Positions 17,678 to 47,500 are shown, counted from the stretch's first letter. The stretch is DNA of 64,000 nucleotides from Candidatus Omnitrophota bacterium (GCA_042572045.1 JBHPFI010000001.1:47818-111817); one strand, 5' to 3'. The notes: generated by a model not told the origin, from the letters alone. Translations and numbers: made by a program.

Positions 17678-17789
17678 GCGCAATAATAAGTTTTCTAACA
17701 TGATCTCTGTGTCCCGCGGCAGAAGATATAGCAGGTTAGAAACGCGGGTTTTTGGCGTAAAAGGCGCCAAAATAGCGCCAGAGGTTTAT

Positions 17790-17818
17790 TTGAAAGATAG
17801 CGTTTTCCATGGTATACT
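17790..17818 (+). promoter_or_regulatory. sigma70-like promoter of giant gene 1 (TTGAAA-17-TATACT)
   Basis: Conserved with the promoters at 38416-38444 and 59344-59372, at the same spacing. Confidence 0.5.
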
Positions 17819-17825
17819 ATATATA

Positions 17826-18050
17826 AGATATATAGCAGCAAGATTCAAGGCATAGCGTATGTACTTTATATGATTAACCAGGCCAGTAATAAGGGCTATT
17901 TTTTTGCCTATATTAAGTTAAACTTTAAAAAACTCTTATATATAGCAGAAAGATAGAAGACATAGCGTATATGCTGTATTGGACTAACTAAGTTGCCGAG
18001 AAAGGCTATTTTTTTGCCTACATTATGATAAACTTTAAAAAACTCTTCAG
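17826..18050 (+). repeat. tandem direct duplication (~112 bp x2) of the giant-gene leader and start region
   Basis: aagggctatttttttgcctatattaagttaaactttaaaaaactctta (17890-17937) repeats ggctatttttttgcctacattatgataaactttaaaaaactcttcag (18003-18050). The ATG is mutated to ATTAAG in the upstream copy. Confidence 0.6.
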
Positions 18051-21000
18051 TATTAAAATTATATCATTAGTTGTAGCTGTAACATTCTTTGTTACATCTA
18101 CATCTTATGGCATAGACATATCTGATAGGATCCACCTACGAACCCCTCTTTTATCTAATTCAAACGAAGGTACAAATAGGTTAAAACAGGCATTATCCTA
18201 TCAGTTAAGGCAGATGCTAGGTCAGGTGGTTAAGTCAGACACTACAGAAGATCTATCATTCTACGGCGAGACAAGGAGGGCTCTTTTATTAGAAGGCGGG
18301 AAGATTCTTTTAAATGAGGAGCTGTATAATAAATATAACTCTGAAAGCATCCTAGAAAGAACAGAGGCCCTTCAGACAATTATACATGAAACAATAGAGG
18401 CTTTGCTCCAGGTAATAAAAGCGGGCCATTCTTCTAGATATCGCTCCATGAAAGAATTAGCCTTAAATCATCTCGTAGAGCTCTATTTTGCCCTTCCCCA
18501 ATCTGATAAAAGTTATAGAGATGAAATTCTTGCCAATGACATCTGGGCTATTGCGTTTGAATACAGGCTAATGGGTGTAATTCTAGAGGATATCCAGGAC
18601 ACTAATCTTAGAGCATTCTTGAAAGAGGCATACGAGATTATTGACGCGCGCGGAAGCCTGTTTGGAGAGGAATTCAGCAATATTTATAGAGTCAAAGAAA
18701 CTGTGATAAATTCCATCAGAAGAGGGATGACTTTTGTCCCTGCGGCAGCTGGAGTAGATGATGTTGACAGGTCGCTTCTGGATGAAGAAATTCATGCAAT
18801 AGTAATAAGAAGAAAATTGAACGCTCGAATTATACAAAGAATGATAAATCGGAAAAAGAGGCATTTATCACCTTACATTGATGAGGTTGACAGGGCAACA
18901 GGTGTCCAGGTTCTTTCCTTAGCCCTTGCAGGAAAAAACCTTGTGGCAAGGCGAACAGCAGAAGATATTGCCCAGAGAGTTGGAGAAAATTTGGGGCATG
19001 CTATTGCTGGTGTAATTTTAGGAGACAGAAAACTGGCAGGAGCAATGAAGGGTATGGAGAGCGCCGCCGAACAAGATATATGGAAAGATGTTCAGCATGT
19101 TGTCTTAGGCGGCGGCGTACTCTCAGGCGAATTTGGGCATGAGGCAACAGCTGTTTCAGAACAGATTCTAAACAAGCACAACCTTGATGTAGAAGTTGAA
19201 CTTTCTGAATGGGGTAGATGGCTTAATCTAGTTGGCCTGGCTCGTTCTGTTGACATATCGAAACTTCGAGAATTATTTCCAGAAGGCGGTAGGGTAAGTT
19301 TTTTGGTTGCAGATTTCGGTAAAACTATGTGGAAACCAGCCGTGGTAGAAGTAGATGTAGATACAGGTAAGGTAGTTATGATAAATGTTCTTGAGAGCGT
19401 TCCTGTTCCTGAGAATGCAGTGCATCCAGTTGCAAGGCGTTGGTGGGTAACTACAAGGCTATTAGATATAATTGTAGCCCGTTTGCCTGTGCGAGCTCGA
19501 GAGTTTTTCTATGATCGTCGTATACAGAGAACTCGGGAATTTACTGAAGACAGGTTGCGGGAATTATATGCGAACCCGCGACTAAACGAATATAATAATT
19601 TTTCTTCTAATATACTTATGCTCACCGTAGGCATTGATGGATTGGACGATGGTCTTTTGCAAGAGGTATTGGGTAAGAAGGATACCACAGAGACAATAAC
19701 AGGAATATTGTGGGATACAAAGGCAAGCGCCCTGGCTCTTACAGGAAGGTACAAGGAGCCCACGGCCGTTATGGTTGTTGGTACGGGTGCTATCTTAACA
19801 TATGTTCCTGAGACAAAAGGAGAAGTCCTTTCTTTGGCAGATAGATTTATTGTTACAGAAGGACGAGGTGGAATAACCGAGATGGCCGCCCTACAAAAGG
19901 AAATCAAGTCTCCAGATGTTGATGCGCAAGGCAGGGATGAAAACGGAAAATTTACAGAAATCCCTGGGAAAAGTCCAGAATATATGAGGGATTTTGTAGC
20001 GACCCATTATGGAAACACCCCTTTTACCATTGCACAATATATTAAAGATTGGGAAATAGCTAACCCCGGAAGAAGATTGCCGCAAAGCACAGCCTATAGT
20101 GACTTAACTAAAGCAAGGGCAAACGGATGGATTGAAAAACGTGAAAAAGCTCATTATAGACTTACCGATAGCGGTTCTTCTTCGGCTTTAGGCTGTTTTG
20201 GAGTTCAGGTTTCACAGGACATATATGTAGTATCTGATGTCATGATAGATACATTTGGTGGGTCTAATTTTCGTGCAATTCATGTTGATAAAAACACCCA
20301 GCCATTATCACTGGCTGACTATGAGCGTTTTCTAGAAAAGTTAGGAACTGTTAGTCCGTCTTTACACAACCAACTTATGGAAGAGCCAGATCAGGGATTT
20401 CAACAGGTTAATTTAGTCTATTTTACCCCCGGACATATTCTTTTAAGAGCTAGTCGGACAAAAAATCCTGAGAGTATTCGTGACGACCTTCGTCATGAAT
20501 ATTTTGAACAAATGTTACGTATGGCCCCCCTAGAGGAGAGAGAAGCTTTCTCATTATTATATGAAAGGCTCTATACGGCCTATCCTGATTTTACGGCAGG
20601 CATCGATGTTCTTTTTGGAGAATTAGAACCTTATGCAGATCAGATTGGCCAAGAAATTTTTTGGGCAGACTTCTGGACTTATGTGGCTTGGCCAGATTTT
20701 TTGGGGCAAGAGTTTTCCGAGGATATTTTAAGGCGGCTTAGTGCGCAAGCACAAACAGATCCTATAATTGCTAGATCTCTTCCCGTAGTTTTAGAATCTC
20801 TTCAAGGACTCAGAGAACAATCGGAGCGGGCCGCTGATTTGACTGTTTCACAGCTTATCGAAACATTTATTGTTGAGGAGCAACGCCAATATGATTTACT
20901 CATTCCAGAAGCGCAGGATTCAAATATAAAGCTGGCGATGTTTGATGTAGGTGGGGTTTTATTTAAAGTAGATTTTCGTAGAAGCGTTGAAAAATTAAAA

Positions 21001-24000
21001 GAATTTTGCCCCAATCTAGTGGTAGAAGCTTCAGAGCAAGGAGAGATAGACGACTACATCTATAGTTTGTTTAGCGATAGACAAAGCGGTTATCTTGGAT
21101 ATCTATTGGAATCAGGTCGGATGGGACCAGAAGAATTTTTTCAAAGGGTGATAGATGTCTTGAAAAGAGAAGGCGTAGAAATAAGTCTGAGATATAGTGA
21201 GTTTATTGAAGTATGGAACGAGGCGTACGAAGGCCCTATAGAAGAAAACATTGCTTTATTTAAGACTTTTATTCTCAAGGGTTACACCGTATATGTACTT
21301 TCTAATAATAATCCTCTCCACAAGGAACTTGTGCTGTCTCTACTTGAGAGGGAAGGGATCTCTTTTAGCCGCAGACATTTTATATCTTCCCATGAGCTTA
21401 GAATGCTTAAAGGCGAAGACACAGAAACGTTTGAGCAGGTTTTGAAGGATAAACGTATTGGGGTTGAGGTTATTAGTGGTAGTAACTTTAGAGCAAGGGT
21501 TTCTCCGGAAGAGATCATATTTTTTGACGATTCACTAGTTAATGTCAGGATGGCAACTAGCGCTAACATAAATGCTCTACATTATACAGGAGAAAAAGGA
21601 TTCGCTCAGAAAGTTAGTGATGTATTGATGCAGCCTGTTGAAAAACCACGGGCTCTTCGAGGTCTTGTTGATAAATACGTGCAAGCAAGAAAAGCCTTAA
21701 AAGCTCAAAGAGAAAGATTTGAGGACATGGTAGTTGATTTACCAGTTCGAGAACGGGTTGATCTTGAAAGGTTAAGAACATTGGGTAGCGAGTTAGGACT
21801 TGATGAGTTAGAGCAAGAAGCAGAAGCCCTAAAAGAAGAACTAAGTAAATATAGAGCTCCTGATGGGCATATATCCTGGTGGCATTATGGAAGTCAAGAA
21901 GCTAATGACTGGCCCACAAGTTATTCTAGAGATAGAGAGCTACCAGCAGATGAGGTTTGGGATATGGAAAGAGAGCCGTCAACAGATGAAGTGTGGATAG
22001 GTTTGGAACAAGTAGCTCTTGGCGCCAAGGTTATTGCTGTTGATTTTGGAAGAACGCTCGTACCTACCAATGCTCGTATTATAGCAGTTGATGAGTTTCT
22101 GTTAAACTGCTTATCAGTCATGGAACTACTTTTAGTTGCTGATAGTGAATTGCGCATTTATATAATTTCTGGAGCAGCTGTTAGAGAAAGAATAGAAGAG
22201 GTGATAATGTTTTTTCCTAGTCGCTTTCATATGTTAAGTACAAGTACAAGGTTTAGGGTTAGCGAAACAGTATATGATAAAGGCCAGGAGGTGCAAGAAA
22301 TATTACATGAGTCTAATCTACCGGAAAGTTCAGTAATCGCTATAGGCGACAGCGAAGAAAATGATCGCCCAATGGCCCTTAGTGAAGGTTATTTTGTTCA
22401 AGTGTATCCTCATACGCGATCTGTTAGCCCAAATGCATTAGATGTACTAGGACGCATCCTAGATATAAAGGGCCAGATTTTTGTACAGCGTGAAGACATA
22501 GAAGATCAAGATTTAGGTGCAATGGGTAAGTTTTTTATCAAAGATGCTTCTTATGATCATGGGAGGAGTACACTTTCTGTTAGGTTAATTGATATGGAAA
22601 AGCCTCAAAGAAACTTAGAGAGCGTAAAGATAAATGCTCAACGTGCTCCTCCAGGATTGATAAATGAAACATTGCAGCAACTGATGGTGATGAGTACGAA
22701 CCCAATGGTAGGGAGGATTATACGTTGGTACACAGATGAATTTGTAAGAAGTGGAGACGCCCTTATCCTCGAAGATAATAAAAGAGATCTATTAGGTCTA
22801 GGCAAGAGAAATATTATTGCAGTATCACGCCATCTAATAAATAACCCCGTAGCTTTATTCCATGAAATAGCCCATGCATATTTTGACGCACACCCTAACG
22901 AAATAGCCCGCATAGAAAGACAGCTTGCCAAGGGAAGGTTAAGATGGGTAAATTCAAAAGATCAGTCACTTAGGACTCATTATGTACTAAGGGCATTCCA
23001 GAGGCAGATATTCAAAGAAAAAGATAGATATCTTACCCAGCTTATAAATAACGTTAAGGAGACCAGAGAATCAGTATCCAGAAGAGAGTTGTTTTATTTG
23101 GGAGACAATTTAATAGAGCTAAAGCAGCTAATACCATTGGCCGAAGCTCTTGAAAGTGCATTAGGGCAGATTGATGATGAAAGGGCAAGAGCAATGCTTT
23201 CAGGAGGCTTTTCAGTAGATGCTGGTGGATATAGCATTGATAATCCAGGCGAACATTTATTGGACATTGTTATAAGAGATGAAACTGGTTCTAAGGTGGC
23301 TGCAATAAAGGTTTGGCCCCTTAAACAAGCAGATGGCGTATCGTATGATAAAAAGGGAGTGTTTTTAGAATGGTTTGGCATAGAGCCATCATGGATGAAA
23401 GGAAGAGGGGTGTCTGGACCAACACTATACCAGGCATTAGCAAGATTTTTGCATGAATTAGGTTATGAGGAGATATATGCCAATATAAAATGGGGTTCTG
23501 ATGATTTCTGGGAAAATATGGGTTTTGAACCTGCAGAAGAAAGTATATATATACCTGGTAGCATACCTGGTTTTTATATAGAAAAACCAGGGGTTATAAG
23601 AGGTGGTAATTGTCCTACGATTGCGCAACTGCATAAAGGAATAATTACAGATCATGTTGCTGAAGGCAAAGCTTCAATGTTAAACATCAGAGGCTTAACA
23701 CCTGAACAGCACGATATGCTTAATCAAGCCTTAGGGACCTTCTTTGTAGGTTTAAACCAGGTACGCAGTGATATAGATGTCCTTGGGGAAGAAGAACTTG
23801 GTAGAATAGACCCGGAAGGTGTTTTAGGAGAAGTAGAAGACCTCAGGGCTTATAGATTCACTAGGGAACAGTTACAACAAGCACTTGAAGATATAGATGC
23901 CCTTCCAGAGGATATAGAATATATCATAGCTAACCTTATTGCCCATCCAGGTAGATTCAGGGATACAAAGGGTATCCCAAGGGCAACAAATCTTTTTATC

Positions 24001-27000
24001 CTGGATGAACACTATAATATCCTTACTCAATTAGAATCTAGTCTACAGGCTCAATGGGCAAGACATGAGCGTGCACATTTAGATGATATCACGCGTTCAG
24101 AGCAAGATATACAAATTGATCATCCAATTGATAGTGTAGTAGGATCTTTAAGAATCAGGATTGCAGAAGCCCGGTTGCTTTCCGAAACCGATAAACTTGA
24201 TGAATATTTTCTAAAAGAAGTTTGGCCTGATGATTTGACCCAGAAGATCGAGCGAATAATCAATGGGAGGCCTATTACCACTATATTCGGGAAGAACTTT
24301 TTGTTTGTAGGTCGATTTCTTTTTATTACACAAACAGAACGGGGCAAACACAAAGATGAGCTTCAGGATTTTAAGGATTCTGTTATTATATGTAACCTTT
24401 CTTATAGTGAGCACAGCCCTTTTCTTAACTTTGAATGGGGGATTAATACACTTTTAGCAGTTCAGATGCTCCAGGCATATGAAGATGAGGTCAGAGGTAA
24501 AACACTTCTTGATGCTGGTAGCGGTTCGGATGCAGTACTGGGGATGGTGGCTCATAGATTAGGTACAAAACAGGTTTTCTGCGTTGAAGGAAATGGAGAA
24601 AAGGCTAGGGGATCAAGGACATTTTTGGAGATAAACGGAATCGACCAGGGGGTTGTAAGAGTAGTGCATGCTGAGTTCTCTGAACTATTAAGCTCTCCGC
24701 AATTAATAGATAAGCCGGATATTGTAATCGCCAATCTTTCTTATAATGGCTTTTATGCAGAAGACAGAAGCGTACCTCGCATTTCTGATTTAGAAGGGCT
24801 TAAGAACTGGCACAGCCAATTAGCGAGAAGATTTTCTCCTGAACTTTATTTTCTCTGTGGAGCTGTGGAGGAATTCCCTAGTAGAAAACCAGCGGGATGG
24901 ATAGAAGTAGCCAAAGGAGCGATGGATGAAGCCGGCTATAAGATTGCTTTAGAAGAGAGTTTGTACCGCGTAAGGGAAGACGAATCAACTACTTTTGTAT
25001 TAGAGCCTGCGATTGGCCAGACTCAGAAGACGCCCGATGAAATTCTGAGAAACATCATGAGGAGTAGAGATGAAAATAGAATTATCGCCCTTATCGATGA
25101 ACTTAGAAAGGCAACATATGATTCTATAGAGGATACAGATATCTATCTAAACAGAGCCCAAGTACATCTATCTAAGTTAAGAATAGAAAGGCGTAGACGT
25201 AAAAGAACGCTACTTGATACACGAGCTGAATTAGATGCGCTGATACGTGAAGCATCAAAGAGGCCCTTTGGTTTTTCTGTGCAAGAGGTAGAGGGGGGAG
25301 ATCTATTTATAGTAGTCAATGGACAGGTTCCTTTGGAAGATGAAGATTATAAAATAATACTATATAATTTGGTATCATTAAAGAAAATTGTTTCTGAATG
25401 GGGCTCTGATAGAGGCGAAGAATTGATAGATTATGTTAGAAGAAGGACGCTTTCTGGATTTCTTGAGATCGACGACATCAGTCATGAGCAGGGATTTTTA
25501 AGCTTAAAAATTGGCGGTTGTGTTTCAGTGACTATAGATATAGCAACCTTAGAGATAGTTTCACAGTCTGGATTGACATTTTTGCCAAAAGCGGATTTTT
25601 ACGACAGTGGCGTGGTGCGCGAATTCGGGGATTACGTTGCAGGACTTATGGAGTCGGAGCTTGGATTCGATGGAGAAGCAAATATGGGGCTAGATACTAT
25701 TTTGTCTTGGGAGTATGGCGCAAGGGCAGCGAGCAAAAAAGTTGACAGTATACAAGGAGCGAAGTCTTTTGAATTAGACGCTGCTTCTGCAGATGAAGAA
25801 TTGCCTAGTGAGGGGGCCGCCGAAGGCGAAGACGGAAAAACCCAAGCCGAGATAGCTAAAGACAAATTGCTCGGGGAAGAATTTGCTCCTTTGGATCATC
25901 CGCACAATATCGCTAATAAGTTAAACGATTGGTATTATCAAGCGTTTGGAGGGGCGGCTTTCAGAAAAACGGAAAGAGTCGGTACCCTTGAAGAAGCAAG
26001 CGCAAAAAAAAGCGCAGAGGAATTTTATGACACATTGAAGATTTTGGATAGCCAAGGTAGCTTGCTAGAAGAGATTGTAGTTCAAGAATGGGGCGCGGGA
26101 GATGGTTATTCTGCCGCTGTTTTTCTAAGTAGACTAAAAGAGCTTGATGAAGAAAATGGCACTAGCTATTATCAAAGATTACGATACGTTCTGATCGATA
26201 AATCCTCAACAGCCGCTGAGGATATAAAAACCAATCCTTATTTATTAGAGCATGCAAGAGTAATAGATACGCGTGTGATGGATGTTTTAGAGGGCGGAGA
26301 GAAGCTTCGCGAGATATTATTAATAAGGGCCAACTCCCTCTTGAATTCACTTCCTAAAAAGATGTTTAAGATTACGAATGGCGACATTTATGAATTATAT
26401 ACAAGGCCATATCTTGATATGGATGAGGTAGAGGTATTGGTAGATAGTAGCGGCAGGAAATACGGGATCGAAGATATGCGGCGCATACTTAGTGAAGAGG
26501 ATGTAGAAGCTATGCGCCGACTCGGCAGAGAGTTCTTCAGGCGCATAAAGTGGGAGGAAAGATACGAGCCGATTACAAGTACAGAGGAATTGCCCTATGG
26601 AGAATATCTGGAAAGCTTGGTTAGGGATGGTTTTGAGGGAAGCATTGCCCTGGATCTAGGTGCACTAACATGCCTAAATAATATGTTGATACAGCTATCC
26701 TCTCACGGCAGCTTACGGATATGTGATGCAGGCGCCGTAGAGTATCCCGAGATAGGAGAAGTAGCTGGCAAATTATTCAGATTCTATGGAGCCATCTATT
26801 CTCCTGTAAATTTTCATTTTTTAAATGAAACGGCCCCTGTTTCAGTAGGAGCAGTAAGTCAGGTCGCTTATGGCGGCGAGTATGTGCAAAAGAGAATTGG
26901 GTTGGTGAAAGTTCTCAATCTTATCCTAAAAGATTTTGAAACGTTTAAAAGATATTTCAATGCAGAAACTTTTTTTACGCCACCATCTCTAACAGTCCCT

Positions 27001-28536
27001 GAAGGTCAAAGAACAGGGTTATTGGAAACATCGGATACCCTCATGCAAGAATACGGGTTTAGCGAAGAAGGTCTGGAAGTATTTAAACAAAGATTGGCGG
27101 ATAGTAGACAGAATATGCATCGTCGACGGATAGATGAGATAGCTCTTTCGTTTGAGGAAACAGGAAATTTTGTAGGTAATTACGTAGATGCATATATATA
27201 TTGGGTATATAGACGGATGGGAGCAGAAAGAAATAATTTACTGGAAAGCCAGAGGTGGCTAATTCCCGGCTCTTGGCAGGACTTAGCCGCTTACGATCAA
27301 TATAAAGAATTTACTAAATTTTGTACTATTTATAATTTTTACGGTGCCGTAGATGCTATTTTTGATGACATGGAAAGCTTTTTCCCTGGATTAAAGGTGT
27401 TTACTGTTAGGCCGGATAAGACTAGTGGCCCATCTTTATTAGAAACTTCCACGAACGAACTTGATATTGATACGCAAGGCAGGGATGGACAGGGAAGATT
27501 TGCAGAACTCCCTGGGAAAAGTCCGGAATATATGAGGGATTTTGTAGCGACCCATTATGGAGACAGCCCTTTTACTATTGCTCAATATATTAAAGACTGG
27601 GAGGCAGCTAATCCTGGGAGAAGATTGCCGCGTAGTACAGCATATAGCGATTTAAGGAGAGCAAGGGCAAATGGATGGATAGAGGGATCCAAAGAAGGAG
27701 CTCATTTAGATTTAGACGAGTTAATGAGATATTCTTCGATAGGCGGGAGTGCACTCAACCATGAGCTGGTTTTTCATATCAAAGGCAGTGATAGTAAGGA
27801 TCCGGAAGTGGCTAGAGATGAGAATTTAAGAAATATGCAAGTAATTGCAGTAGAATCAACTCTAGACCCAGAGTTTTTTGGCGAGGATCATACTACGCAC
27901 ACATTGTTATTTATAGATACTGAAAAAGACGAGGTGGTTGGTTACGCTGGAGTTGCAATACAAGGGGAGCGCATTATTGGCGGTTCAGGCAAGGTTTTTG
28001 ACTCATTTAGAAATCATGGTTACATGGGGAGAGCCGTAAAGCTTTTACTTTTAAGCCGTCAAACAAAAGAATGGTTCTCGTCTTACTCATTAGAAAAGCC
28101 GGCAGAAAGAATGTATCAAAGAATTGGAGAAGACTCGCGATTTATCATAACATCTGTCAGGCCTTCAGGATACCTCTTAAGGCTTAAGGCCGAGCAAGTC
28201 GCTATGAGTGAGTTACAGCAAACAGTTGTACTATTCTCAGGAGATGAAGCGCAAGATAACCTTGATGGCTTTAGGCAGGCATTAGATGAGCTAGATGAGA
28301 CCAATACAGCTGTAGTAATAGTAGATTCAGAAGAACAGCAGAGATTTTTCATAGAGCACAGAGGAGAACTAGGAAGATTTTATATTAGAACACCGGGACA
28401 ATTAGGTTTAGCTAGCTTTGATTTAGAACAGGTCATGACTACGATAATGGGTATAGATAATCTTAGATGCGTTCCTCTCACAGATTCCCTCTGCGACACC
28501 TTTGAATCCCTTAAGCAGGCCAGGGGCCAGGTGTAG
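18025..28536 (+). CDS. giant secreted multidomain protein, paralog 1 (3503 aa)
   Basis: Uninterrupted 10.5-kb ORF. N-terminal signal-like MINFKKLFSIKIISLVVAVTFFVTSTSYG. Internal motifs: HAD (MFDVGGVLF...YVLSNNN...FFDDSLVNV ~20930-21600), HExxH (FHEIAHAYF ~22861), GNAT-like (~23290-23530 and ~27895-28130), PrmA-like methyltransferase (LLDAGSGSDA...DIVIANLSY ~24440-24800), second SAM methyltransferase (QEWGAGDG ~26000-26350). The repeated ~70-aa module occurs twice, and the C-terminal domain is conserved. Confidence 0.85.
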   Translation: MINFKKLFSIKIISLVVAVTFFVTSTSYGIDISDRIHLRTPLLSNSNEGTNRLKQALSYQLRQMLGQVVKSDTTEDLSFYGETRRALLLEGGKILLNEELYNKYNSESILERTEALQTIIHETIEALLQVIKAGHSSRYRSMKELALNHLVELYFALPQSDKSYRDEILANDIWAIAFEYRLMGVILEDIQDTNLRAFLKEAYEIIDARGSLFGEEFSNIYRVKETVINSIRRGMTFVPAAAGVDDVDRSLLDEEIHAIVIRRKLNARIIQRMINRKKRHLSPYIDEVDRATGVQVLSLALAGKNLVARRTAEDIAQRVGENLGHAIAGVILGDRKLAGAMKGMESAAEQDIWKDVQHVVLGGGVLSGEFGHEATAVSEQILNKHNLDVEVELSEWGRWLNLVGLARSVDISKLRELFPEGGRVSFLVADFGKTMWKPAVVEVDVDTGKVVMINVLESVPVPENAVHPVARRWWVTTRLLDIIVARLPVRAREFFYDRRIQRTREFTEDRLRELYANPRLNEYNNFSSNILMLTVGIDGLDDGLLQEVLGKKDTTETITGILWDTKASALALTGRYKEPTAVMVVGTGAILTYVPETKGEVLSLADRFIVTEGRGGITEMAALQKEIKSPDVDAQGRDENGKFTEIPGKSPEYMRDFVATHYGNTPFTIAQYIKDWEIANPGRRLPQSTAYSDLTKARANGWIEKREKAHYRLTDSGSSSALGCFGVQVSQDIYVVSDVMIDTFGGSNFRAIHVDKNTQPLSLADYERFLEKLGTVSPSLHNQLMEEPDQGFQQVNLVYFTPGHILLRASRTKNPESIRDDLRHEYFEQMLRMAPLEEREAFSLLYERLYTAYPDFTAGIDVLFGELEPYADQIGQEIFWADFWTYVAWPDFLGQEFSEDILRRLSAQAQTDPIIARSLPVVLESLQGLREQSERAADLTVSQLIETFIVEEQRQYDLLIPEAQDSNIKLAMFDVGGVLFKVDFRRSVEKLKEFCPNLVVEASEQGEIDDYIYSLFSDRQSGYLGYLLESGRMGPEEFFQRVIDVLKREGVEISLRYSEFIEVWNEAYEGPIEENIALFKTFILKGYTVYVLSNNNPLHKELVLSLLEREGISFSRRHFISSHELRMLKGEDTETFEQVLKDKRIGVEVISGSNFRARVSPEEIIFFDDSLVNVRMATSANINALHYTGEKGFAQKVSDVLMQPVEKPRALRGLVDKYVQARKALKAQRERFEDMVVDLPVRERVDLERLRTLGSELGLDELEQEAEALKEELSKYRAPDGHISWWHYGSQEANDWPTSYSRDRELPADEVWDMEREPSTDEVWIGLEQVALGAKVIAVDFGRTLVPTNARIIAVDEFLLNCLSVMELLLVADSELRIYIISGAAVRERIEEVIMFFPSRFHMLSTSTRFRVSETVYDKGQEVQEILHESNLPESSVIAIGDSEENDRPMALSEGYFVQVYPHTRSVSPNALDVLGRILDIKGQIFVQREDIEDQDLGAMGKFFIKDASYDHGRSTLSVRLIDMEKPQRNLESVKINAQRAPPGLINETLQQLMVMSTNPMVGRIIRWYTDEFVRSGDALILEDNKRDLLGLGKRNIIAVSRHLINNPVALFHEIAHAYFDAHPNEIARIERQLAKGRLRWVNSKDQSLRTHYVLRAFQRQIFKEKDRYLTQLINNVKETRESVSRRELFYLGDNLIELKQLIPLAEALESALGQIDDERARAMLSGGFSVDAGGYSIDNPGEHLLDIVIRDETGSKVAAIKVWPLKQADGVSYDKKGVFLEWFGIEPSWMKGRGVSGPTLYQALARFLHELGYEEIYANIKWGSDDFWENMGFEPAEESIYIPGSIPGFYIEKPGVIRGGNCPTIAQLHKGIITDHVAEGKASMLNIRGLTPEQHDMLNQALGTFFVGLNQVRSDIDVLGEEELGRIDPEGVLGEVEDLRAYRFTREQLQQALEDIDALPEDIEYIIANLIAHPGRFRDTKGIPRATNLFILDEHYNILTQLESSLQAQWARHERAHLDDITRSEQDIQIDHPIDSVVGSLRIRIAEARLLSETDKLDEYFLKEVWPDDLTQKIERIINGRPITTIFGKNFLFVGRFLFITQTERGKHKDELQDFKDSVIICNLSYSEHSPFLNFEWGINTLLAVQMLQAYEDEVRGKTLLDAGSGSDAVLGMVAHRLGTKQVFCVEGNGEKARGSRTFLEINGIDQGVVRVVHAEFSELLSSPQLIDKPDIVIANLSYNGFYAEDRSVPRISDLEGLKNWHSQLARRFSPELYFLCGAVEEFPSRKPAGWIEVAKGAMDEAGYKIALEESLYRVREDESTTFVLEPAIGQTQKTPDEILRNIMRSRDENRIIALIDELRKATYDSIEDTDIYLNRAQVHLSKLRIERRRRKRTLLDTRAELDALIREASKRPFGFSVQEVEGGDLFIVVNGQVPLEDEDYKIILYNLVSLKKIVSEWGSDRGEELIDYVRRRTLSGFLEIDDISHEQGFLSLKIGGCVSVTIDIATLEIVSQSGLTFLPKADFYDSGVVREFGDYVAGLMESELGFDGEANMGLDTILSWEYGARAASKKVDSIQGAKSFELDAASADEELPSEGAAEGEDGKTQAEIAKDKLLGEEFAPLDHPHNIANKLNDWYYQAFGGAAFRKTERVGTLEEASAKKSAEEFYDTLKILDSQGSLLEEIVVQEWGAGDGYSAAVFLSRLKELDEENGTSYYQRLRYVLIDKSSTAAEDIKTNPYLLEHARVIDTRVMDVLEGGEKLREILLIRANSLLNSLPKKMFKITNGDIYELYTRPYLDMDEVEVLVDSSGRKYGIEDMRRILSEEDVEAMRRLGREFFRRIKWEERYEPITSTEELPYGEYLESLVRDGFEGSIALDLGALTCLNNMLIQLSSHGSLRICDAGAVEYPEIGEVAGKLFRFYGAIYSPVNFHFLNETAPVSVGAVSQVAYGGEYVQKRIGLVKVLNLILKDFETFKRYFNAETFFTPPSLTVPEGQRTGLLETSDTLMQEYGFSEEGLEVFKQRLADSRQNMHRRRIDEIALSFEETGNFVGNYVDAYIYWVYRRMGAERNNLLESQRWLIPGSWQDLAAYDQYKEFTKFCTIYNFYGAVDAIFDDMESFFPGLKVFTVRPDKTSGPSLLETSTNELDIDTQGRDGQGRFAELPGKSPEYMRDFVATHYGDSPFTIAQYIKDWEAANPGRRLPRSTAYSDLRRARANGWIEGSKEGAHLDLDELMRYSSIGGSALNHELVFHIKGSDSKDPEVARDENLRNMQVIAVESTLDPEFFGEDHTTHTLLFIDTEKDEVVGYAGVAIQGERIIGGSGKVFDSFRNHGYMGRAVKLLLLSRQTKEWFSSYSLEKPAERMYQRIGEDSRFIITSVRPSGYLLRLKAEQVAMSELQQTVVLFSGDEAQDNLDGFRQALDELDETNTAVVIVDSEEQQRFFIEHRGELGRFYIRTPGQLGLASFDLEQVMTTIMGIDNLRCVPLTDSLCDTFESLKQARGQV
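19915..20136 (+). repeat. conserved ~70-aa module, copy 1 (DVDAQGRDENGKFTEIPGKSPEYMRDFVATHYG..PFTIAQYIKDWE.ANPGRRLP.STAYSDL..ARANGWIE)
   Basis: Near-identical to 27463-27684 and 44704-44926 (~90% nt identity). Confidence 0.8.
27463..27684 (+). repeat. conserved ~70-aa module, copy 2 (within giant gene 1)
   Basis: DIDTQGRDGQGRFAELPGKSPEYMRDFVATHYGDSPFTIAQYIKDWEAANPGRRLPRSTAYSDLRRARANGWIE. Confidence 0.8.
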
Positions 28537-32533: not shown

Positions 32534-32542
32534 GAGATAGAT

Positions 32543-32613
32543 TAGATGTATCCCGCTTACAGATTCCCTCTGCGATACTTCCGAATCCCTTAAGCAGGCC
32601 AGGGGCCAGGTAA
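32543..32613 (+). pseudogene. orphan 3'-terminal fragment of the giant-gene family (last ~22 codons plus stop)
   Basis: agatgtatcccgcttacagattccctct matches the gene 2 3' end. gcgatacttccgaatcccttaagcaggccaggggccaggt matches the gene 1 3' end. There is no upstream ORF. The fragment is followed by the same downstream sequence and promoter module as gene 2. Confidence 0.65.
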
Positions 32614-38252: not shown

Positions 38253-38415
38253 CCGTTCTCCCGCTTTCTAAAAGCAGTATCATGTTTTTCCCTTCAAGCA
38301 TTTCTTAAAAAATCTATTGACAGGAAAGAGTTTTCATAGTATATTTATAATTTTTTATAAAATATGTAAATAATGTATTGGGGCTCATGCCGAAGGACGG
38401 GTACCAGGAATTTGC

Positions 38416-38444: not shown

Positions 38445-38546
38445 TTATATTAATCAGATATACATAGCAGGGATATTTAGGCCATAGAATATATAGATAT
38501 ATGTATTAACCAAGCCGTTAAGAAAGGCTATTTTTTTGCCTACATT

Positions 38547-41500
38547 ATGATAAACTTTAAAAAACTCTTCAGTATGAGGATTGTATCATTAGTCGTAGCT
38601 GTAACATTCTTTGTTACATCTACGTCTTATGGCATAGATATACCTGATAGATCCCACTTAAGGACCCCTCTTTTAACAAATTCAGACCAAGGGACCAGTA
38701 GGTTAAAGCAAGCCCTATTCTACCAGTTAAGACAGATGCTAGGCCAGGTAGTCAATGCAGACACTTCCAAAGACCTTGCCTTTTACGAAGGAGAAAAACA
38801 AGCCCTTTTGCTAGAAGATGGAAAGATCCTGGTAAATGAAGAGCTATATGATAAGTATAACTCTGAGATCCCGGGAGAAAGAACCGAAGCCCTTCAGGTA
38901 CTCATACATGAGACAGTAGAGGCACTTCTCCAGGTTGTAAAAAGAAACCATTCCTCCAGATATCAGACTATGAAGGAGCTGGCCTTAAGTAACCTCCCAG
39001 CACTCTATTTTCGCATTCCCCACCAAGCTGATAAGACCTACCGCGATGAAATCCTTGCAAATGACATCTGGGCAGTTGCATTTGAATACAGAATGATGGG
39101 CATAACCCCAGAACAGGTCCAAGACCCTGATCTCCAAAACTTCCTAAAAAAATCCTATGAGATTATTGATGCACGCAGAAGCCTATTTGGTGAGGAGTTC
39201 AACAGCCCTTACAGGGCTAAAGAGACTGTAGTAGAGGCCTTAAGAAGAGGGTTTGAGTTTAAGAGGGTAGCGAGAGCAGACGCGCAGGAAGAGATGAAGG
39301 GCGGGAAAGAGGTAGTTTTTTTGCAGGCCAGCGTGGCCGACGATTTAATCTATCCAGAAGGCAAGTCGGGATTAATGAACTCTGTGGAAGAGCTGAAAGG
39401 CAAGCCGATTAGGTTTGATATTATCAACGGAGAGATTTTGTTGCAAGATGAGCAGCCGCTATTTAGATTATTAGGGCTTGAGACTTCTCATTCTCAGCAG
39501 GATTTCTTGGAGTATGGGCTCTGCGCGCTTATCCGGGAGCGGCTCTTAGAGACAGATGTTTCTACATTAGGCGATTTGCGCAATCTTAGTTTTGTTTTTG
39601 GTGACGAAGATAGTGCTTCTGTCTCTGGATTTGATTTCCGTAGCCCATATGCTAAAAGTGGAAGAAACGGAATATTTTTTATAAACGTTAAGGCATTAGC
39701 TGCGCTAGAAAAGCCTCAGGACAGACAGACTGCTTTTATTTTAGGCGTCTCACATATGATATCGCATGAGGCCTTAAAAGGCGCGGATACAGTTGAACCA
39801 ATTTTGCTGGCCCAGGATATAAGATTAGCGACTACTCCCGGCAGAATCAGCATGGACCCTAGCGCTTTTATTGAAAACTTTAGAGCTACTGTAAGGCTTG
39901 ACTCCGGACCTTATGAGGGCATATTAAGATTTCTTGATACCGGCTATTTACGGCGAGAGAATATAGAAATATTAGCATCTAGCGGCATAATGAGAGATTT
40001 ATTTCAAGCCCTACCTGAATTGGATGCATTATACGCGGCGCGTTACAAAGGAAAAAGCTTTCTTTCAAAAGAGGAAAGAACAGCTGTGTTCCAATATGCC
40101 ACTATATTGGTCCATCAGGGAAGGATAAAGGAGGCCAGAGAAGTTATTGAACAACCGCTTGGTCGAACTGCTATACTCGGCAGTAGTTACGACAAAGAAT
40201 TATACAAAGCAGAACTCCAGTATTATTTGAATATGGGAGATATTGTTTCAGCGGTTACGCTTACAGAAAAGTTTTTTGCAGAATTTCCAGATGACTGGAG
40301 GGTAACGAACGGAAGTTTTGTAAAAGAGTTTGTTAGTAGAGGATATTTTCAGCAAGCTCGCGAACTTCTGAAAAAATACTATCAAGGCGATGAAATCCGT
40401 CCCGGCGGAGAGCTGCAACATATCGCGTTTTTGTATAAAGAGCTAGGGGAGTTTAATGATTTAATTAATATATGTAAACTTATACCCCTTCAGTTCAAGC
40501 CAGAAGATAGGCCTCGCGAACAATATGCTATGATAACATCTTGTATTCTTGCAGATATGGCGATACATCTTGTAGAAGAAGGCAGGATGAGCGAAGCAAT
40601 CGCCATTGCTTATGAGCCAGGACTTGAGCCGTATAGATTAGTAGTGTTAGCCAAGCTAGTTACTTTTCTTCTAACTAGTGATCGCGCTGATTATCAGGCT
40701 GAAGCGATGAATATCGTCGATAAACTTAAAGACGACCAAATTGTCAGCGCTTTAGTTAATAAACGAATAAGCATGTGGCCTGACCAGCCGGCATATGATT
40801 ATTACTATTATGCTTATATGGAAGGTGTTTACGCAGAAGCAATGTTTGCTATAGGTGAGTATGAATCATTAGCTCGTAAGGTTATCGTGACTACCAGTAT
40901 GGATTTTAATCTGGATTATATATTAGAACGTATTGGTTATGGCGAAGATTTATCGAGATTTATTCAGACCTGCGTAGTGGTTGCTGCAGAGGTCGAGCCC
41001 CCTCAAAACAATATCTATTATCATAATCGCGGTCAATTGCATTTTAACTGTAGAATCGCTAGGATTATGTTTGACTGGGTGTATGAACATGGCTATAGAA
41101 AAACCGCAGAATTCATAGATTCCTATTTAGATGATATTGAGCCAGATAGAACTCATCCAGAAAGACCTTCTTGGGTAATAGCAAAATTAACAGCCCAAGC
41201 TTGTTTACGTAGGGAAATGGACGATTCCCTTGTTGAAGAATGCCGCGGCTACGAAAACGGAGAAAAAATTCTAACTAGCCTTGCCGAACAACGTAAAAAA
41301 AGAAACGAAGCTTTTCCAGCAGACAAAGAAAAAAAAGGCATAAGGAGGTATTGGGAAGATGAATACACTCGAAAGTTTAAACAAACTACAGGAAGTCTTG
41401 ACATAAGAGCTGCTGGGTATCCATCATTGCAAACTTTATTGGAACGCCCTGTTGACCCTTTCAGTGCTAAGAGTAATAGATTTCCAAATATGACTAAAGA

Positions 41501-44500
41501 GTGCCATGGATATGTTACGCGTAGTTCATGGATACTATCGCGATCAGTTATAGGAGCAGTGCTAGAGCGCAGAGAAGGGTATGACAGATTGGCGGAAGAA
41601 ATCGGACCTTACAGGGTTCAGGCACTTTTAGATAGTGTTATACAAAGAAGAGGCGCTGATGCTTATTTTGTTTTCGAGGGGTTTATTGCACTTTTTCATG
41701 CCGGGATTACTAACGTTGACATGTTAGACAGGATAGACCTTGTTCTTACTCCTCTGGCCAGAAAGGCAGGTGTCGGGATAGCTAAGGCCTACGAGGATTT
41801 TGTAGATTTACTATCAGCAGGCATTCCTATTGAAGAAGGCTTGAAGCTTATAGGGACGGTAGTCGAAAGAGAATCTAGTGAGATTTCGGTCGCATATGAT
41901 AGCTTATATGTACTTATTAGAGAAGATATAGTAAATGTTTTAGTTCAGGCCGGCATTTCGCAGCAAGAAGTAGTAAGCTTTTTACAAAACATTGCTACTG
42001 GAGATAGATGGGATACTTCTTTTATTTTTTGGAGCTTAGTAGCGTTGGCCAGGTCAAATCTTATAAACGGAGATAGCTATCCTACCATTGGCCATCTATA
42101 TAAGGAGCTCTCATCATTCCAGAGGGGTGTTAGGAGATTTAAAAGTCTATTTAATAGAGCTAACGGGGCGGTCACAGAAGAGCATTTTAAACAGTTTGAA
42201 GAACGGGCCAAGGATATATATAATGCGCTTGAAATGCAGAATATAATTAGAAAAGGGCAAGTAGTAAAAGAAGAGATAGAAGAGTTTCTTGGTCTAGACG
42301 TAGACCAGGCTGATAGAAAGTATTTGGCGGGATTAAGCTTAAGGAATACTCAAGAGCTCTCGACAGTGCAGAATATTTTGAGAGAAATTTACGGCCGTGC
42401 CTTTGCCGAACAGCACAGGATAGATGAAGTGCGTTTCTGGCCAATGCACCTTAGAAACATAGCCTTTTTCCAGGTAGCTTGCGGAAGAATAGGTCTGGAT
42501 GTTGCGAATTTTGTCGTCAGTTCCTTAGGACCGAGAAGATTGGACAATTTTCTGACGCAAACAATGGAAATATATACTGACGAATCTTATGTGCGTGGAT
42601 TAATTTCGCTATTAAACGGTTCCCAGGACAGGCATCCCGGGCTTGCTTTGCATATAGTGGAATACGCCGCGGCCTATAGCCAGTTAGAGTTGGGAACAGA
42701 GTTTGGCAAGGTAGTCGCAGGAGTGGTGTCGGATAAATTTGGACTTAGACAGGCAAAAATAGACTTAGGAACCGAATTATTCAGGCTATTTTCCCAACAG
42801 CTTGGCTTGCAAGTGGATAACATATCGGAAGATATGATTAATGCCTGGGAGTTGAGCTATCTTTCTAAATTGTTTGTGGGACGCAAAATGATTCATGCCA
42901 AGGGAACGGCCTACAGGCCCCTTCAGGATTTATTCGATAGCATTATTACATCAACGCTCGAGGGCAGGTTTGAGCAATTTATTATGGACACTAATCCTGA
43001 GACAAACGCTTATCCGATGGGCGTTAGAGTGGCCGAGCACAATGAGCAATTAAGAGCGGCGTTGTCCGAAAAGGGGATAGACGTGGCTTTTTGGCTTAGG
43101 TACAGTGAGACGAGCTCCTTTGGTTTTAGTGCCGAAGAAGACGAAGGCGAGGTCATTGATATAATCGGTGAATTGGGTGCATTGGCCGATGCCCTTTCTT
43201 TTATATTGAATAAACTTCCGGGCGATGAAGCGAGGTATGGAGAAGCCATTCTAGGCAGCCTTAGAAAGATGGAGATTTTTCTTGATACGACGGATCCGGA
43301 GCGCCCCTTTTTCTGTAGGATCATGAAGGACGGCGAGCTGTCTACTGATCCGGAAGATGTCTTGTCCGTCTTGTTTGACGGACAGAGATTGCCGGGCTTG
43401 AGAAAAAATCTTGCGTATGTGCAGGGACGCACCGTAGAGCAGGAAGTCGCGACTGCGATATTTCATTTTGTAGAGGATATAGATAGGGTCGACGGAATTG
43501 TCGCAAAGACGGATTTAAAAGATCTTACAAGTGGCGCGGAGAGGTTTACGGTCAAGGTGTGGGGTCGAAACCCCGCAAGGGATATATTCCAGGGTAATTT
43601 TACCAGTTGTTGCGTTGCGATTGATAACAATCTTCATCCGGAGGCGATCCTGGAATACTTAATTGATCAAGGTATTCAGGTGGTAGAGGTGATTAATGAA
43701 GCCACAGGCGAAACGATCGCCCAGACATGGTGTTTTATCGCGATGGATGGTGATGGCGAGGCTGTCTTGGTTATGGACAACATAGAGGTGGTAGGTAAAT
43801 ACGCAGCAGCAGGAACTGATGAGAATAATATAATCAGGGATAATATACTAAGCTATCTGCAAAGATATACGAGGGCAATAGGCGCTAAAGGTCTTTATTT
43901 GGGAAACACCCCATATCAAGACGTGGATGTATCGACGTTTGAGAGAGTTCCGGTAAGCCTGACAAAGTTAGGAGGCAATCTATGGGCTTATGAAGGAGAG
44001 GGTCAGGGGTATCGTTATTATCTGGAGGCGCTTTACAGCGAAGACCGCAGCAGGAGAAAGACTGAGGCCCACAGGATGTCGTTACCCGAGGTGTCCGTTG
44101 ATGAGACTGCAACCGATGCAGGCTTTAGCATAGAAGTCATTACTCCTGATACAATCGATTGGAAATTGATAGGCGAGTTGGCAGCAGTAGAAGTCGATGC
44201 CTATGCTGGGCCTATGGTACTGGGCGTAGAATCCATTAGAAGCGTAGTGGAAAACCCTAAAGCCGTATGCCTTGTTATAAGAGATGACTCCAGCGGGAGA
44301 ATCGCGGGATATCGATTTGCCATACCTTCGCAGGAATATCCGCAGAGTCCGATTGTAGGGGCTGACATACTTTATGGATACGATATCGCAATCCATCCCA
44401 AATATCAAAGGAGAGGGCTTTTTAGCAGGCTGCACGCGGAATTTATCGAGGAGGCACGCGCAAGAGGTTATACAGCGATGTCTGCGCATGTCAGAATAGC

Positions 44501-47500
44501 GGGCAATGTCCCTGAGCCCCTGCGTTGGCCAAGGATATGGATAGAAAGGCTAGAGGGACGACCCGTTAAAGGCGGACAGATTGTCTTTCCTGATAACGGA
44601 AAGCGTTATTCCGACTCGATCCTTTTGGATTGCGCGATCCCGTGGCTCGATGGTGAATCGGCAATCCCATGCGTCCTGGATCTGGCTGAAACAGAGTCTC
44701 CAGACGTTGATTTGCAAGGTAGAGATGAGAGCGGAAAATTTGCAGAGCTCCCCATGAAAAGCCCGGGATATATGAGGGATTTTGTAGCGACCCATTATGG
44801 AGACAGCCCTTTTACCATAGCTCAATATATTAAAGATTGGGAGACGGCTAACCCCGGAAGAAGATTGCCGAGCAGCACAGCCTATAGTGACTTAACTAAA
44901 GCAAGGGCAAACGGATGGATTGAGAAATTAGAGGGACCTCATTATAGACTTGCCGAGATAGGACAGGTTCAGAATGTCGGCCATGTCGAAGCATGGGAAG
45001 AAGATGTAAGTGTCGCTAAAGAGCAAGTTGTAAAAGTCCTTGTTCTCGATGATGACTATCATATGCTCAATGCAACCAAGGAAAGACTTGCCGCCTCAGA
45101 GATTGTAAGTATAGAAACAGCAGCAGAAATGGATGAAGGACTCAAAATATTAGAGGCCAATCCAGATATTAACTTTTTAGTGCTTGATTTTAGACTCTTT
45201 GAGTATCCCACTGAAAATGGAGTTCAGTTTTGCAAGAAGGCGTTTAAGGCCCCTTATAATTTTGAAGGAAGAGTTGTGATTTATTCAGCCGATGATACCG
45301 CTATTATAAGTGAGCTTAAGCGCTATCCCGACCTGTGGGACAGGTATATACAAGGACAGATTTCTATTCAATTAAAACATGACACAAGGGCATTCGAAGA
45401 CATAAGGGCCAGGATTATATCATTCGCAAGGGGTGAAGAGGCGCTGCCTCAGGAAAGCGCTACGGATATCGTAGCATTAGAAGAAGAGCTTCCGCTTGCA
45501 GCATTAACGATAACACCAGATGATATCGGCATTACTCCTGCCATTGTAGATCGATTTAGGGATTGCCATGTAATCATAGCAGATGATAAGCCTTTTATAA
45601 GAAATGCTATCGAGGCAACGGTTAGCAGATTTTTTGATAACGTACATAAATTAGGTACGGTCGAAGATGCTGTAGAATTGGTGAAGGCATTGCGCAGACA
45701 AGGCGTGCCTGAGGAAAGGATAATAATCCTTTCTGATTATGAGTTCGGGACCGAACAGACAGGTATAAGACGGCTGGATGGTCGCGATTTTGTGAACATG
45801 TTGAGGTTAGCCCCGAACGCTGACTATCCCGAGGAGACCCTTGGCTTTATGGGATTCTTCTTCTTTGTTTCAGGAAGTATTATTTCTAAAGACCAGATAT
45901 CCGGCTTTAACAAGTCCGCAAAGGATATTGACTTTGAAGTCAAGGTAAAATATGGGATTGATTATATTGAGAAAAATGCCGATGAAGAGTTTCCGATTGC
46001 ACTGCTAAAAATGGTCTATGTCAGACTTCAAAAGCCGTATAATTTAAGCGCAGATATTACTGATGCCCTTCCACGTAAGCCTATGTCTAAGCCGGCTGAT
46101 ATCAGTTTCTTGAACGGAGGCGTTAATGATTTTGAAACAAGGCTTAAAATGGGCCTTAGGGTTTTAAAAGATTCACTAACAGAACTTGCGCCCAGAGTGG
46201 AAGACAGAGAGGCCTTAAGAAGGATAGAAGAGGTTCTTTCTAAAATGAGTGCATTTTTTGAGCTTGGAAATGTTGACAGGAGCCTTGCCTTTAATGTGCG
46301 TACCCATAATTACAAAGGGCATATTTTTTACGCAGCAGGTTATTTAACTCCCCAGATACGCGAAGAAGTAGAGTCCTTGAGTGCTTCTGATAGAGAAAAA
46401 TACGGACCATTCCTTGAGCAATTGGATAATCTAAGCTTAACGATGAATGTCGCCGCAAACTATATGCTTAGATTATTAAGATTATCCGCAGCAGTCGGGA
46501 ATATTAATATGCCTATTACTTTTGAGGAATTTATACATAATACCGTAGAGATTTTTCTTACCGATTATGGAAAGCGAGTAAGTATTGAAACGGATTTTGA
46601 TAGAGACAGCCTTGAAGGCCTGGAATTTCCCTATGGCCTCGCCTTTATTGTAGCATTCATATTGGATAATGCCCTTGAACAGTATCAGGTAAAGTTTGGC
46701 AAGGATTTTAAAGGCAAGATATTTTTTAAGGTCAATAAGGAAGAAAAGACACTTGAAATAGAAATAATTGACGAGGCGGGTGGCATACCAGAGAAGGTAT
46801 TGCCTAATATATTTCTGAGAAAGTTTACTACAAAGGTACATGGCGCCGGGTTTGGATTATTTTGGGCTAAGCAGCTGATGGGCATGTATGATGGTGAGAT
46901 TGCAGTGCGCAACGAAGGCGATGGCGCCTGTTTTACCTTGACTCTTCCGCTTGATTGGAAACGCATTGCAGAAGAAAAAGAATACGCCCCCGAAGAACTT
47001 ATGCAGCGAGTCCTTGATGTGCTCGCCGAACGCGGCAATCCTGATGCGGAGGAACTTGCAGAGAAGATCGCGAGAGAGATTTATACATACAGCACCAAAA
47101 TTGCTGAGGTTACTAAGACAAGAGAGACAATCTCACACGAATCTTATTTATATCAAGGTCACAAGCACATTAGATACAAAATAGAAGAGATGCTCAACAC
47201 TTATTTCCTGGCTATATGTACTGGCGACTACCAGGTTTTTAGAGATATTATTTTTGAAAAAGGCACGACGCAAAAGGACATAGAAGACCTTTTATTATCG
47301 CTACTTGCGCTTAAACAGGTTGAGGAGAAAGAGGACATAACATTCGCACATTTACCAGTAAGACAGGCGGTTGTGCTCTTATATGATTCTGAAGGCAGAG
47401 CACGGATCTTGCTTCGTTCAAAAGAGAATCTTGCGAGAGAAGAGGAGGGCATTACGCCAGAAAAAAGGAATAGGTATCAAAGAGTATTACGGCAGACTGG

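Follow-up and report, generated by a model that had tools for sequence, protein, structure and literature searches.

We describe a giant multi-enzyme gene in a 64,000-nucleotide (nt) stretch of Candidatus Omnitrophota bacterium DNA (GCA_042572045.1, JBHPFI010000001.1:47818-111817), hereafter the window. This gene (gene 1) is an uninterrupted open reading frame (ORF) on the plus strand (18025 to 28536) that runs for 10.5 kb without a stop codon, encodes 3,503 amino acids (aa) and is 100% identical to the NCBI entry 'hypothetical protein ACFL0P_00370 [Candidatus Omnitrophota bacterium]', which sits on a 176-kb contig. With a probability of about one half, we read its product as a compact Omnitrophota giant multi-enzyme protein, an exported, effector-like array that would act at or in a host cell. 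The data below demonstrate the anatomy of gene 1, its chassis and its family, as well as its mosaicism. A lineage-specific chassis of three parts, namely a 55-aa leader, a head domain with an HExxE motif and a 112-aa tail, holds between head and tail a payload chain of a HAD domain and a probable second one, HExxH modules, GNAT-like cores, predicted methyltransferases and winged-helix-like modules, and the whole may have arisen by recombinational concatenation of units that are also found as separate leader-bearing proteins. A first-pass annotation of the same DNA had read the gene as a multi-effector toxin; the ORF and all seven motif strings that it quoted are real and lie where it placed them, and the serial arrangement of unrelated enzyme modules behind a predicted N-terminal export signal is supported.

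A conserved leader, head and tail

The chassis is seen in a second gene of the window (gene 2), whose payload of TPR, GNAT, receiver and HATPase_c domains is unrelated to that of gene 1. The two products are 72% identical over aa 1-238 (leader and head), 77% over a winged-helix-like module of ~100 aa that occurs twice in gene 1 (aa 626-723 and 3136-3240), and 68% over the C-terminal ~112-140 aa. Ratios of non-synonymous to synonymous substitution (dN/dS) of 0.13-0.35 across these common parts indicate purifying selection. Synonymous divergence, computed for 18025-18735 versus 38547-39260, for 19900-20193 and 27430-27744 versus 44688-44981, and for 28198-28533 versus 48336-48671, is lowest in the leader, the tail and one winged-helix-like pair (~0.36-0.39), intermediate in the other pair (0.70) and highest in the head (1.6). 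This unevenness points to a probable mosaic history and suggests that gene conversion or recent exchange may have affected some of the common parts only.

The same ~55-aa leader starts four genes of the window (18025-18189, 38547-38711, 59464-59590 and 63369-63491), with the pattern MINFKK or MIKFRK, then YG↓ID or YS↓YP (the arrow marking the putative cleavage site) and LRxP. The genes at 59464 and 63369 share it over their first ~40 codons, and the latter exits the window. The former (59464-63312) encodes a 1,282-aa protein in which the leader precedes starch-synthase GT5 and GT1 glycosyltransferase domains, a content that matches the 'Module 2' of sugar metabolism reported for Omnitrophota giants. 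Conservation extends upstream of gene 1, gene 2 and the 59464 gene (17769-18024, 38395-38546 and 59323-59463), which have in common a promoter-like site (TTGAAA-17-TATACT/TATAAT) and a 5' untranslated region (UTR) of ~200 nt; an Rfam scan of this UTR returned no known RNA family.

Beyond the window, an exhaustive search of 1.84 billion representatives with the head profile returned 304 proteins at E<=1e-3, ~25 of which carry the full head (in proteins of up to 3,963 aa), while most others match over aa 1-60 only. In public data, at least 126 clusters, whose proteins are of various lengths, begin with the leader; its consensus is MlKFKK.yNlKIISL..A..F..NST.YGIDL..K.HLR.PL, in which L38 and R39 are kept at 97-98%. 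Of the clusters, 74% have A or V at position -3 of the cleavage-site region and 96% have G, A or S at position -1, and the net charge falls from +3.4 ahead of the hydrophobic core to +0.5 behind it. The leader thus resembles a Sec signal peptide that includes a site for signal peptidase I, and its conservation far exceeds that of ordinary signal peptides. No other segment of gene 1 is strongly hydrophobic, and no second transmembrane segment follows the leader, which bears out the signal-peptide-like N-terminus of the first-pass annotation.

The cargo of 64 leader-bearing proteins includes HEAT, TPR, methyltransferase, radical SAM/B12, PPDK_N, pentapeptide-repeat and aldo-keto reductase domains. 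Individual relatives bear sigma-70, AAA ATPase, radical SAM or histidine-kinase/receiver domains, and one family member (P0150) bears a low-molecular-weight (LMW) phosphotyrosine phosphatase. All named relatives are proteins from Omnitrophota metagenome-assembled genomes. GTDB genomes scanned with profiles of the head and of the tail gave no matches; of two metagenome scans, one was empty and the other gave a single frameshifted head copy (L003), which is uninformative. Among the matches listed in a whole-protein homologue search, only gene 1 itself and gene 2 appeared.

In a 30-sequence alignment of the head, E122, Q129, N171 and F213 are invariant and H121, E125, Y139 and E179 nearly so. Its AlphaFold model (predicted local distance difference test score, pLDDT, 83; predicted template modelling score 0.72) is helical apart from a small sheet of three strands, and one long helix bears the HExxE motif; a Foldseek comparison of this model with the PDB found no relative, and PDB profile searches with head and tail were empty or non-significant. 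The most widely common part of gene 1 is the C-terminal 112 aa, which also terminates gene 2, P0006 (an 833-aa protein of the same genome), P0037, P0084, P0150 and P0025. A different alpha/beta tail of similar appearance, ...SLILYADDILENA ... PIRxLTDD...QYEEY..SL..LVAA, was noticed by eye in three head-bearing Omnitrophota proteins (P0054, P0109 and P0135); judged likewise by eye, it may be distant kin of the gene 1 tail (...CVPLTDSLC...SLKQARGQV).

Payload modules and their assignment

The coordinates of the features of gene 1 and its surroundings are collected in Table 1.

Table 1. Features of gene 1, of its paralogue and of related sequences in the window
Feature	Position	Strand	Residues	Remarks
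Promoter-like site	17790..17818	+		TTGAAA-17-TATACT, then ~200 nt of conserved 5' UTR
Degenerate extra copy of UTR end and first leader codons	17873..17979	+		ATG changed to AAG, dead start
Gene 1	18025..28536	+		single ORF, NCBI ACFL0P_00370
Conserved leader	18025..18189	+	1-55	Lys-rich n-region, hydrophobic core, putative A/V-Y-G↓I-D site after aa 29, then H-L-R-x-P-L
Head domain	18190..18735	+	56-237	HExxE (H121, E122, E125), Q129, N171, E179
Winged-helix-like module, copy 1	19900..20193	+	626-723	weak PadR and HVO_A0261_N matches, E 0.01-0.04
HAD phosphatase domain 1, YihX/HAD-IA-like	20926..21582	+	968-1186	FD973VGGV, S1092, DD1168-9
Probable second HAD, Cof-type	22030..22380	+	1336-1452	VDFGRT ... 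GDSEEND, sub-threshold
HEIAH module	22501..23079	+	1493-1685	HEIAHAYFDAH; directly after the leader in P0145 and P0154-P0156
GNAT-like core 1	23275..23526	+	1751-1834	sub-threshold Pfam match
HERAH module	23656..24210	+	1878-2062	leader-proximal in P0024, P0149, P0084, P0075 and P0157/8
Class I methyltransferase, PrmA/PRMT-like	24415..24744	+	2131-2240	S-adenosylmethionine-dependent type; Pfam and PDB relatives
Second methyltransferase, Methyltransf_28 (NDUFAF7/MidA-like), N-terminal half	26023..26406	+	2667-2794	E-W-G-A-G-D-G
Winged-helix-like module, copy 2	27430..27744	+	3136-3240	repeat of copy 1
GNAT-like core 2	27865..28128	+	3281-3368	sub-threshold; leader-proximal in P0025
Conserved C-terminal tail domain	28198..28533	+	3392-3503	112 aa; also ends gene 2 and relatives
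Relic of giant-gene 3' end	32542..32611	+		70 nt, 87% identical to 28463-28532; outside long ORFs
Gene 2, paralogue	38547..48674	+		3,375 aa; leader/head, winged-helix-like module and tail of gene 1, other payload

The seven motif strings start at aa 972 (MFDVGGVLF), 1090 (YVLSNNN), 1166 (FFDDSLVNV), 1612 (FHEIAHAYF), 2161 (LLDAGSGSDAVLG), 2232 (DIVIANLSY) and 2687 (QEWGAGDG). The first HAD domain matches PF00702 (aa 968-1180, E 1.2e-7) above the curated Pfam cut-off, and its best NCBIfam models are glucose-1-phosphatase (YihX) and HAD-IA. Its PDB relatives are 4dcc and YihX (E ~3e-4), to which it aligns with FDVGGV against IDLGGV in motif I, LSNNN against LSNTN in motif II and FFDDS against FIDDS in motif IV; the Lys motif (K in MLKGE) aligns too. 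With motifs I-IV in order on a predicted Rossmannoid core, this domain is a YihX-like HAD-IA member with predicted phosphatase activity. A probable second HAD matches Hydrolase_3 at aa ~1336-1452 (E 0.0011) with 19.2 bits, below the cut-off of 20.9.

Two methyltransferase-like domains follow further downstream. Isolated aa 2100-2340 match PF06325 (PrmA) at E 2.4e-5 and 24.4 bits versus a cut-off of 22, and the closest structure is Trypanosoma brucei PRMT7 (E 4.7e-5), with PrmA and PRMT6/8 weaker; the alignment spans only ~80-100 residues, and neither a PrmA N-terminal domain nor the PRMT double-E and THW loops were seen in this domain. The PrmA reading of the first-pass annotation is therefore favoured, whereas the string ending in NLSY, which it took for a decayed NPPY motif, is better read as the likely PrmA/PRMT strand-4 motif D-I-V-I-A-N. 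The second domain matches Methyltransf_28 (PF02636, aa 2667-2794) with 24-28 bits (up to 27.8) versus a cut-off of 23.3, over profile positions 6-123 of 249. Both GNAT cores fall below the cut-off of Acetyltransf_1, at E 0.17 for core 1 and E 0.012 for core 2 (E 0.0028 in the relative P0025). PDB profile searches with the two cores gave no GNAT matches, and GNAT structures recur among the non-significant Foldseek matches of a low-confidence model for core 1. For the second HAD and for each GNAT core, the assigned family is the single best Pfam match and covers most of the profile. The module list of the first-pass annotation is thus supported above cut-offs for HAD, the PrmA-like domain and Methyltransf_28, and its two GNAT cores are sub-threshold.

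The HExxH motif occurs twice in gene 1 (aa 1613 and 2014) versus 0.107 occurrences expected from composition. In the first module, HEIAHAYFDAH, which has the spacing HExxHxxxxxH, is invariant across five close relatives. In the second, the second His is not kept and P0157/8 read HERAD, which argues against a zincin there. Neither module matched a peptidase family in Pfam or the fold of a solved structure, and a PDB profile search with the HEIAH module was empty or non-significant. The idea that a single zincin-like domain gave rise, by divergence, to the head and to both HExxH modules was rejected on an hhalign probability of <1%; the sole hint in its favour was a weak SprT-like match (E 0.24). 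The motif quoted by the first-pass annotation is conserved, and 'protease' remains a motif-level idea, with no family or fold match behind it.

Most modules yielded shallow alignments. Since only the Rossmann cores of the HAD and methyltransferase modules match known families, their substrate-binding parts are not recognisable. These modules resemble YihX-type HAD-IA, PrmA/PRMT and NDUFAF7/MidA enzymes, with catalytic and cofactor motifs that appear largely intact, and differ from them in being embedded in a putatively exported mosaic protein.

Mosaic make-up and genomic setting

Internal modules of gene 1 recur close to the leader in smaller proteins. The HEIAH module (aa 1493-1685) corresponds to aa ~59-251 of P0145, P0155 and P0156 (70-72% identical), the HERAH module (aa 1878-2062) to aa ~51-236 of P0024, P0149, P0084, P0075 and P0157/8, GNAT core 2 to aa 84-237 of P0025, and aa 2333-2397 to aa 138-202 of P0060. 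P0154 (601 aa) consists of the leader, the HEIAH module, GNAT core 1 and another winged helix, and is 52% identical to aa 1480-2075 over 81% of that query. Across P0145, P0154-6, P0024, P0149, P0084 and P0025, identity between the leader-proximal modules and those inside gene 1 is 52-72%, and similarity in the relatives begins right behind the RL..GL stretch of the leader. Because its internal modules recur in this leader-proximal position, gene 1 looks like a series of concatenated units, each of which would have lost its own leader.

A relative on an ENA contig (L002, 12-2732 and 2780-4264), whose ORF is interrupted only by a scaffold gap, matches the final 355 aa of gene 1 at 82% identity with its C-terminal part, which comprises the winged-helix-like module, GNAT core 2 and the tail; its N-terminal part bears a LysM peptidoglycan-binding domain (E 3.4e-6) and IDP...YAIP...ELKLFI repeats. 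P0003, the database protein of that gene, was considered as a leaderless, free-standing C-terminal unit and rejected, as a run of Ns lies inside the gene and the ORF continues upstream, so that it is a fragment.

The DNA around gene 1 carries traces of rearrangement as well. The duplicate at 17873-17979 resembles a scar left by a recombination event at the leader. The relic at 32542-32611 directly follows a small TPR gene, and the sequence beyond it resembles the region 3' of gene 2. Short direct repeats at 50611-50680/55492-55561 (91%) and 11959-12068/56314-56423 (82%) form the starts or ends of otherwise different genes, which suggests that genes of this genome often exchange their ends.

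Could gene 1 itself be an artefact, i.e., an assembly chimera over repeated modules or a fused pseudogene in decay? The repeated modules, the dead duplicated start and the 70-nt relic do indicate a family that rearranges, and no full-length orthologue appeared among the matches listed or in the GTDB and metagenome scans. A chimera is unlikely because repeats of the gene 1 family in the window are only 66-86% identical in DNA, too divergent for mis-joining, and because P0154 crosses from the HEIAH module into GNAT core 1. The 10.5 kb of open frame and the purifying selection on the parts common to genes 1 and 2 further speak against decay, and we regard the artefact explanation as hardly credible.

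The setting is that of a bacterial chromosome, neither phage nor plasmid, and nearly all genes of the window lie on the plus strand. Genes 5' of gene 1 encode Dus, a peptidase U32, an RF-1-domain protein, an MFS transporter and an AMP-binding enzyme; those 3' of it encode a SAM methyltransferase, a MerR-like protein and a DUF4126 protein. A phage or defence origin was considered for gene 1 and rejected, with no PHROG match to it. Directly downstream lies a CspA-like cold-shock gene (28724-28924, 66 aa) with its own TTGACA-17-TATACT promoter, which escapes detection at an ORF cut-off of 100 aa. Further away, a c-di-GMP-I-GGC riboswitch (RF03167, 53254-53336 on the minus strand, 60.3 bits versus a cut-off of 59) sits upstream of the sole large minus-strand ORF (52288-53175), which has no Pfam match and contains a periodic repeat of 12/18/24 nt at 52327-52602.

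Export, site of action and rival readings

Export, delivery and all enzymatic activities of gene 1 are what we infer from these features. For export speak the features of the leader and the LysM domain on the L002 relative. The leader would move the unfolded chain through the inner membrane, and the enzymes would work at or within a host or prey cell to which the bacterium is attached, where the array might modify host proteins or metabolites and would not be a killing toxin. The argument for this site is that the enzymes need S-adenosylmethionine (SAM), acetyl-coenzyme A (acetyl-CoA) and phospho-substrates, all of which are confined to the interior of cells; the dependence of the recognisable modules on SAM, acetyl-CoA, ATP and Fe-S is an argument against a simple periplasmic or extracellular role. 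Giant ORFs of the phylum have been linked to host attachment or predation, and giant-ORF peptides are enriched in attached cells, a result that concerns such ORFs generally and not gene 1 itself. RNA of a cultured Omnitrophota member has been seen inside dead prey cells, an observation with no direct bearing on gene 1.

Several points weigh against this reading. Export and cleavage are deduced from sequence features of the leader, and no secretion-system genes were found in the 64-kb window. About half of the protein is without annotation, and the head, the tail and the HEIAH module are without structural relatives. For aa 1480-2075, AlphaFold gave a poor model (mean pLDDT 52), with its HERAH part at 75-93. 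Motif I of the PrmA-like domain, GSGSD-A, is atypical and has a one-residue insertion relative to PRMT7, and the GNAT, second HAD and HExxH assignments are sub-threshold or motif-only and thus provisional. Finally, all recognisable domains are of cytoplasmic type and would equally fit a protein tethered to the cytoplasmic face of its own membrane.

This last point leads to a scaffold that faces the cytoplasm by way of an uncleaved anchor or an unused leader and forms a regulatory or metabolic megacomplex at its own membrane. All identified domains are indeed cofactor-dependent cytoplasmic types, relatives carry sigma-70, radical SAM/B12, AAA or histidine-kinase/receiver domains, housekeeping genes flank gene 1, and Nielsen & Lui (bioRxiv 10.64898/2026.06.07.730766) find such a scaffold compatible with their Module 1 content. 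However, the charge difference across the leader (+3.4/+0.5) and the A/V-Y-G↓I-D site favour an N-terminus inside with the rest translocated, no second transmembrane segment returns the chain, and a close relative of the C-terminal unit bears LysM, an extracytoplasmic peptidoglycan binder. We consider the scaffold doubtful and prefer intracellular action in another cell after delivery. It is unlikely, in our view, that the protein instead stays on the Omnitrophota surface as a coat or cell-wall-processing protein that binds or modifies polymers of the envelope or the prey surface. West-Roberts et al. (bioRxiv 10.1101/2023.11.21.568195) suggest, for GNAT and related domains of giant proteins, a role in the processing of cell-surface polymers, and LysM occurs in a relative; but SAM and acetyl-CoA are unavailable outside cells, Pfam scans of gene 1 found no glycoside hydrolase, lectin, dockerin or adhesin domain, and it has neither transmembrane arrays nor a known anchoring motif.

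A true multi-effector toxin of the MARTX or polymorphic kind, killing competitors or prey, as proposed by the first-pass annotation, appears very unlikely. MARTX toxins are defined by glycine-rich RTX repeats, a cysteine protease domain (CPD) that releases effectors, and export by a type I secretion system (T1SS) without an N-terminal signal peptide. Like them, gene 1 strings several unrelated enzyme modules together between the conserved ends of one very large polypeptide. It differs in having no RTX/HemolysinCabind match at E<=0.1 in Pfam or NCBIfam, no match to Peptidase_C80 (the inositol-hexakisphosphate-activated protease) or to any other peptidase family, and a putative N-terminal signal peptide, with no ABC, membrane fusion protein or TolC genes of a T1SS, and no type VI secretion system genes, in the window. 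In Rhs and CDI polymorphic toxins, the N-terminal shell or stick is conserved, the toxin tip at the C-terminus varies, and an immunity gene lies next to the toxin gene. Gene 1 shares with them a cargo exchanged by recombination on a conserved trafficking scaffold, but it is conserved at both ends, the C-terminus included, and variable in the middle, and it has no RHS/YD repeat matches (Pfam, NCBIfam), no known toxin domain and no immunity gene. As the first-pass annotation had remarked, no immunity-like ORF is obvious, and a check downstream found only the cold-shock gene. The MARTX/Rhs logic that it invoked is therefore borne out in the conserved ends, the variable payload and the shuffled modules, all of which speak for the toxin, and fails in the defining features of those systems. 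The metzincin-like spacing of HEIAHAYFDAH and the LMW phosphotyrosine phosphatase of P0150, from a class secreted by some pathogens, also favour a toxin; the payload domains, however, resemble housekeeping enzymes.

The enzyme combination had been thought undescribed, which existing reports refute. Methyltransferase, GNAT, HAD and HATPase modules co-occur in Omnitrophota giant proteins (West-Roberts et al., bioRxiv 10.1101/2023.11.21.568195), and 'Module 1' comprises methyltransferase, HATPase_c, GNAT and HAD domains that co-occur in Omnitrophota long proteins (Nielsen & Lui, bioRxiv 10.64898/2026.06.07.730766). The idea of a new toxin with an undescribed enzyme combination is thus largely explained by these reports. 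The domain vocabulary of gene 1 and of the cargo of its family matches the Module 1 set; gene 1 fits the signal-peptide-only topology class and differs in size, as the catalogue begins at 10 thousand aa (kAA) and gene 1 has 3,503 aa. Its family resembles the Archaeovorins in phylum, in an N-terminal signal region, in mostly unannotated sequence between recognisable parts, and in a vocabulary of methyltransferases, GNAT, HAD, HATPase_c, HEAT, TPR, radical SAM and PPDK_N. Gene 1 is ~10 times shorter (3.5 kAA versus >30 kAA), and has one hydrophobic segment and no SecA match, whereas Archaeovorins are described with many transmembrane regions and a divergent SecA DEAD-like domain; nor, in contrast to them, does it carry a C39 or S8 peptidase or glycoside hydrolases, or have type II secretion system, pilus or PilZ genes as neighbours within the window. 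A term search of the 2026 preprint by Nielsen & Lui gave no leader, fusion or shuffling, and its mentions of N- and C-termini describe no head/tail chassis. It is possible, and we propose it tentatively, that leader, HExxE head and tail form an undescribed, Omnitrophota-specific chassis for sorting strings of housekeeping-type enzymes and regulators (methyltransferases, GNATs, HADs, kinases, sigma factors and radical SAM enzymes) and delivering them into attached host cells, with gene 1 as an intermediate in the recombinational joining of single leader-bearing units toward 'Archaeovorin' genes.

The giants of the Omnitrophota rank with the largest proteins on record; at 3.5 kAA, gene 1 is small enough to dissect. 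The leader is a sequence handle for cataloguing exported cargo and for seeking its transport machinery, and the chassis of leader, head and tail, together with the free-standing units, hints at how giant genes grow. If it is true that the cargo enters host cells, it would constitute an unusual effector repertoire of housekeeping-like enzymes.

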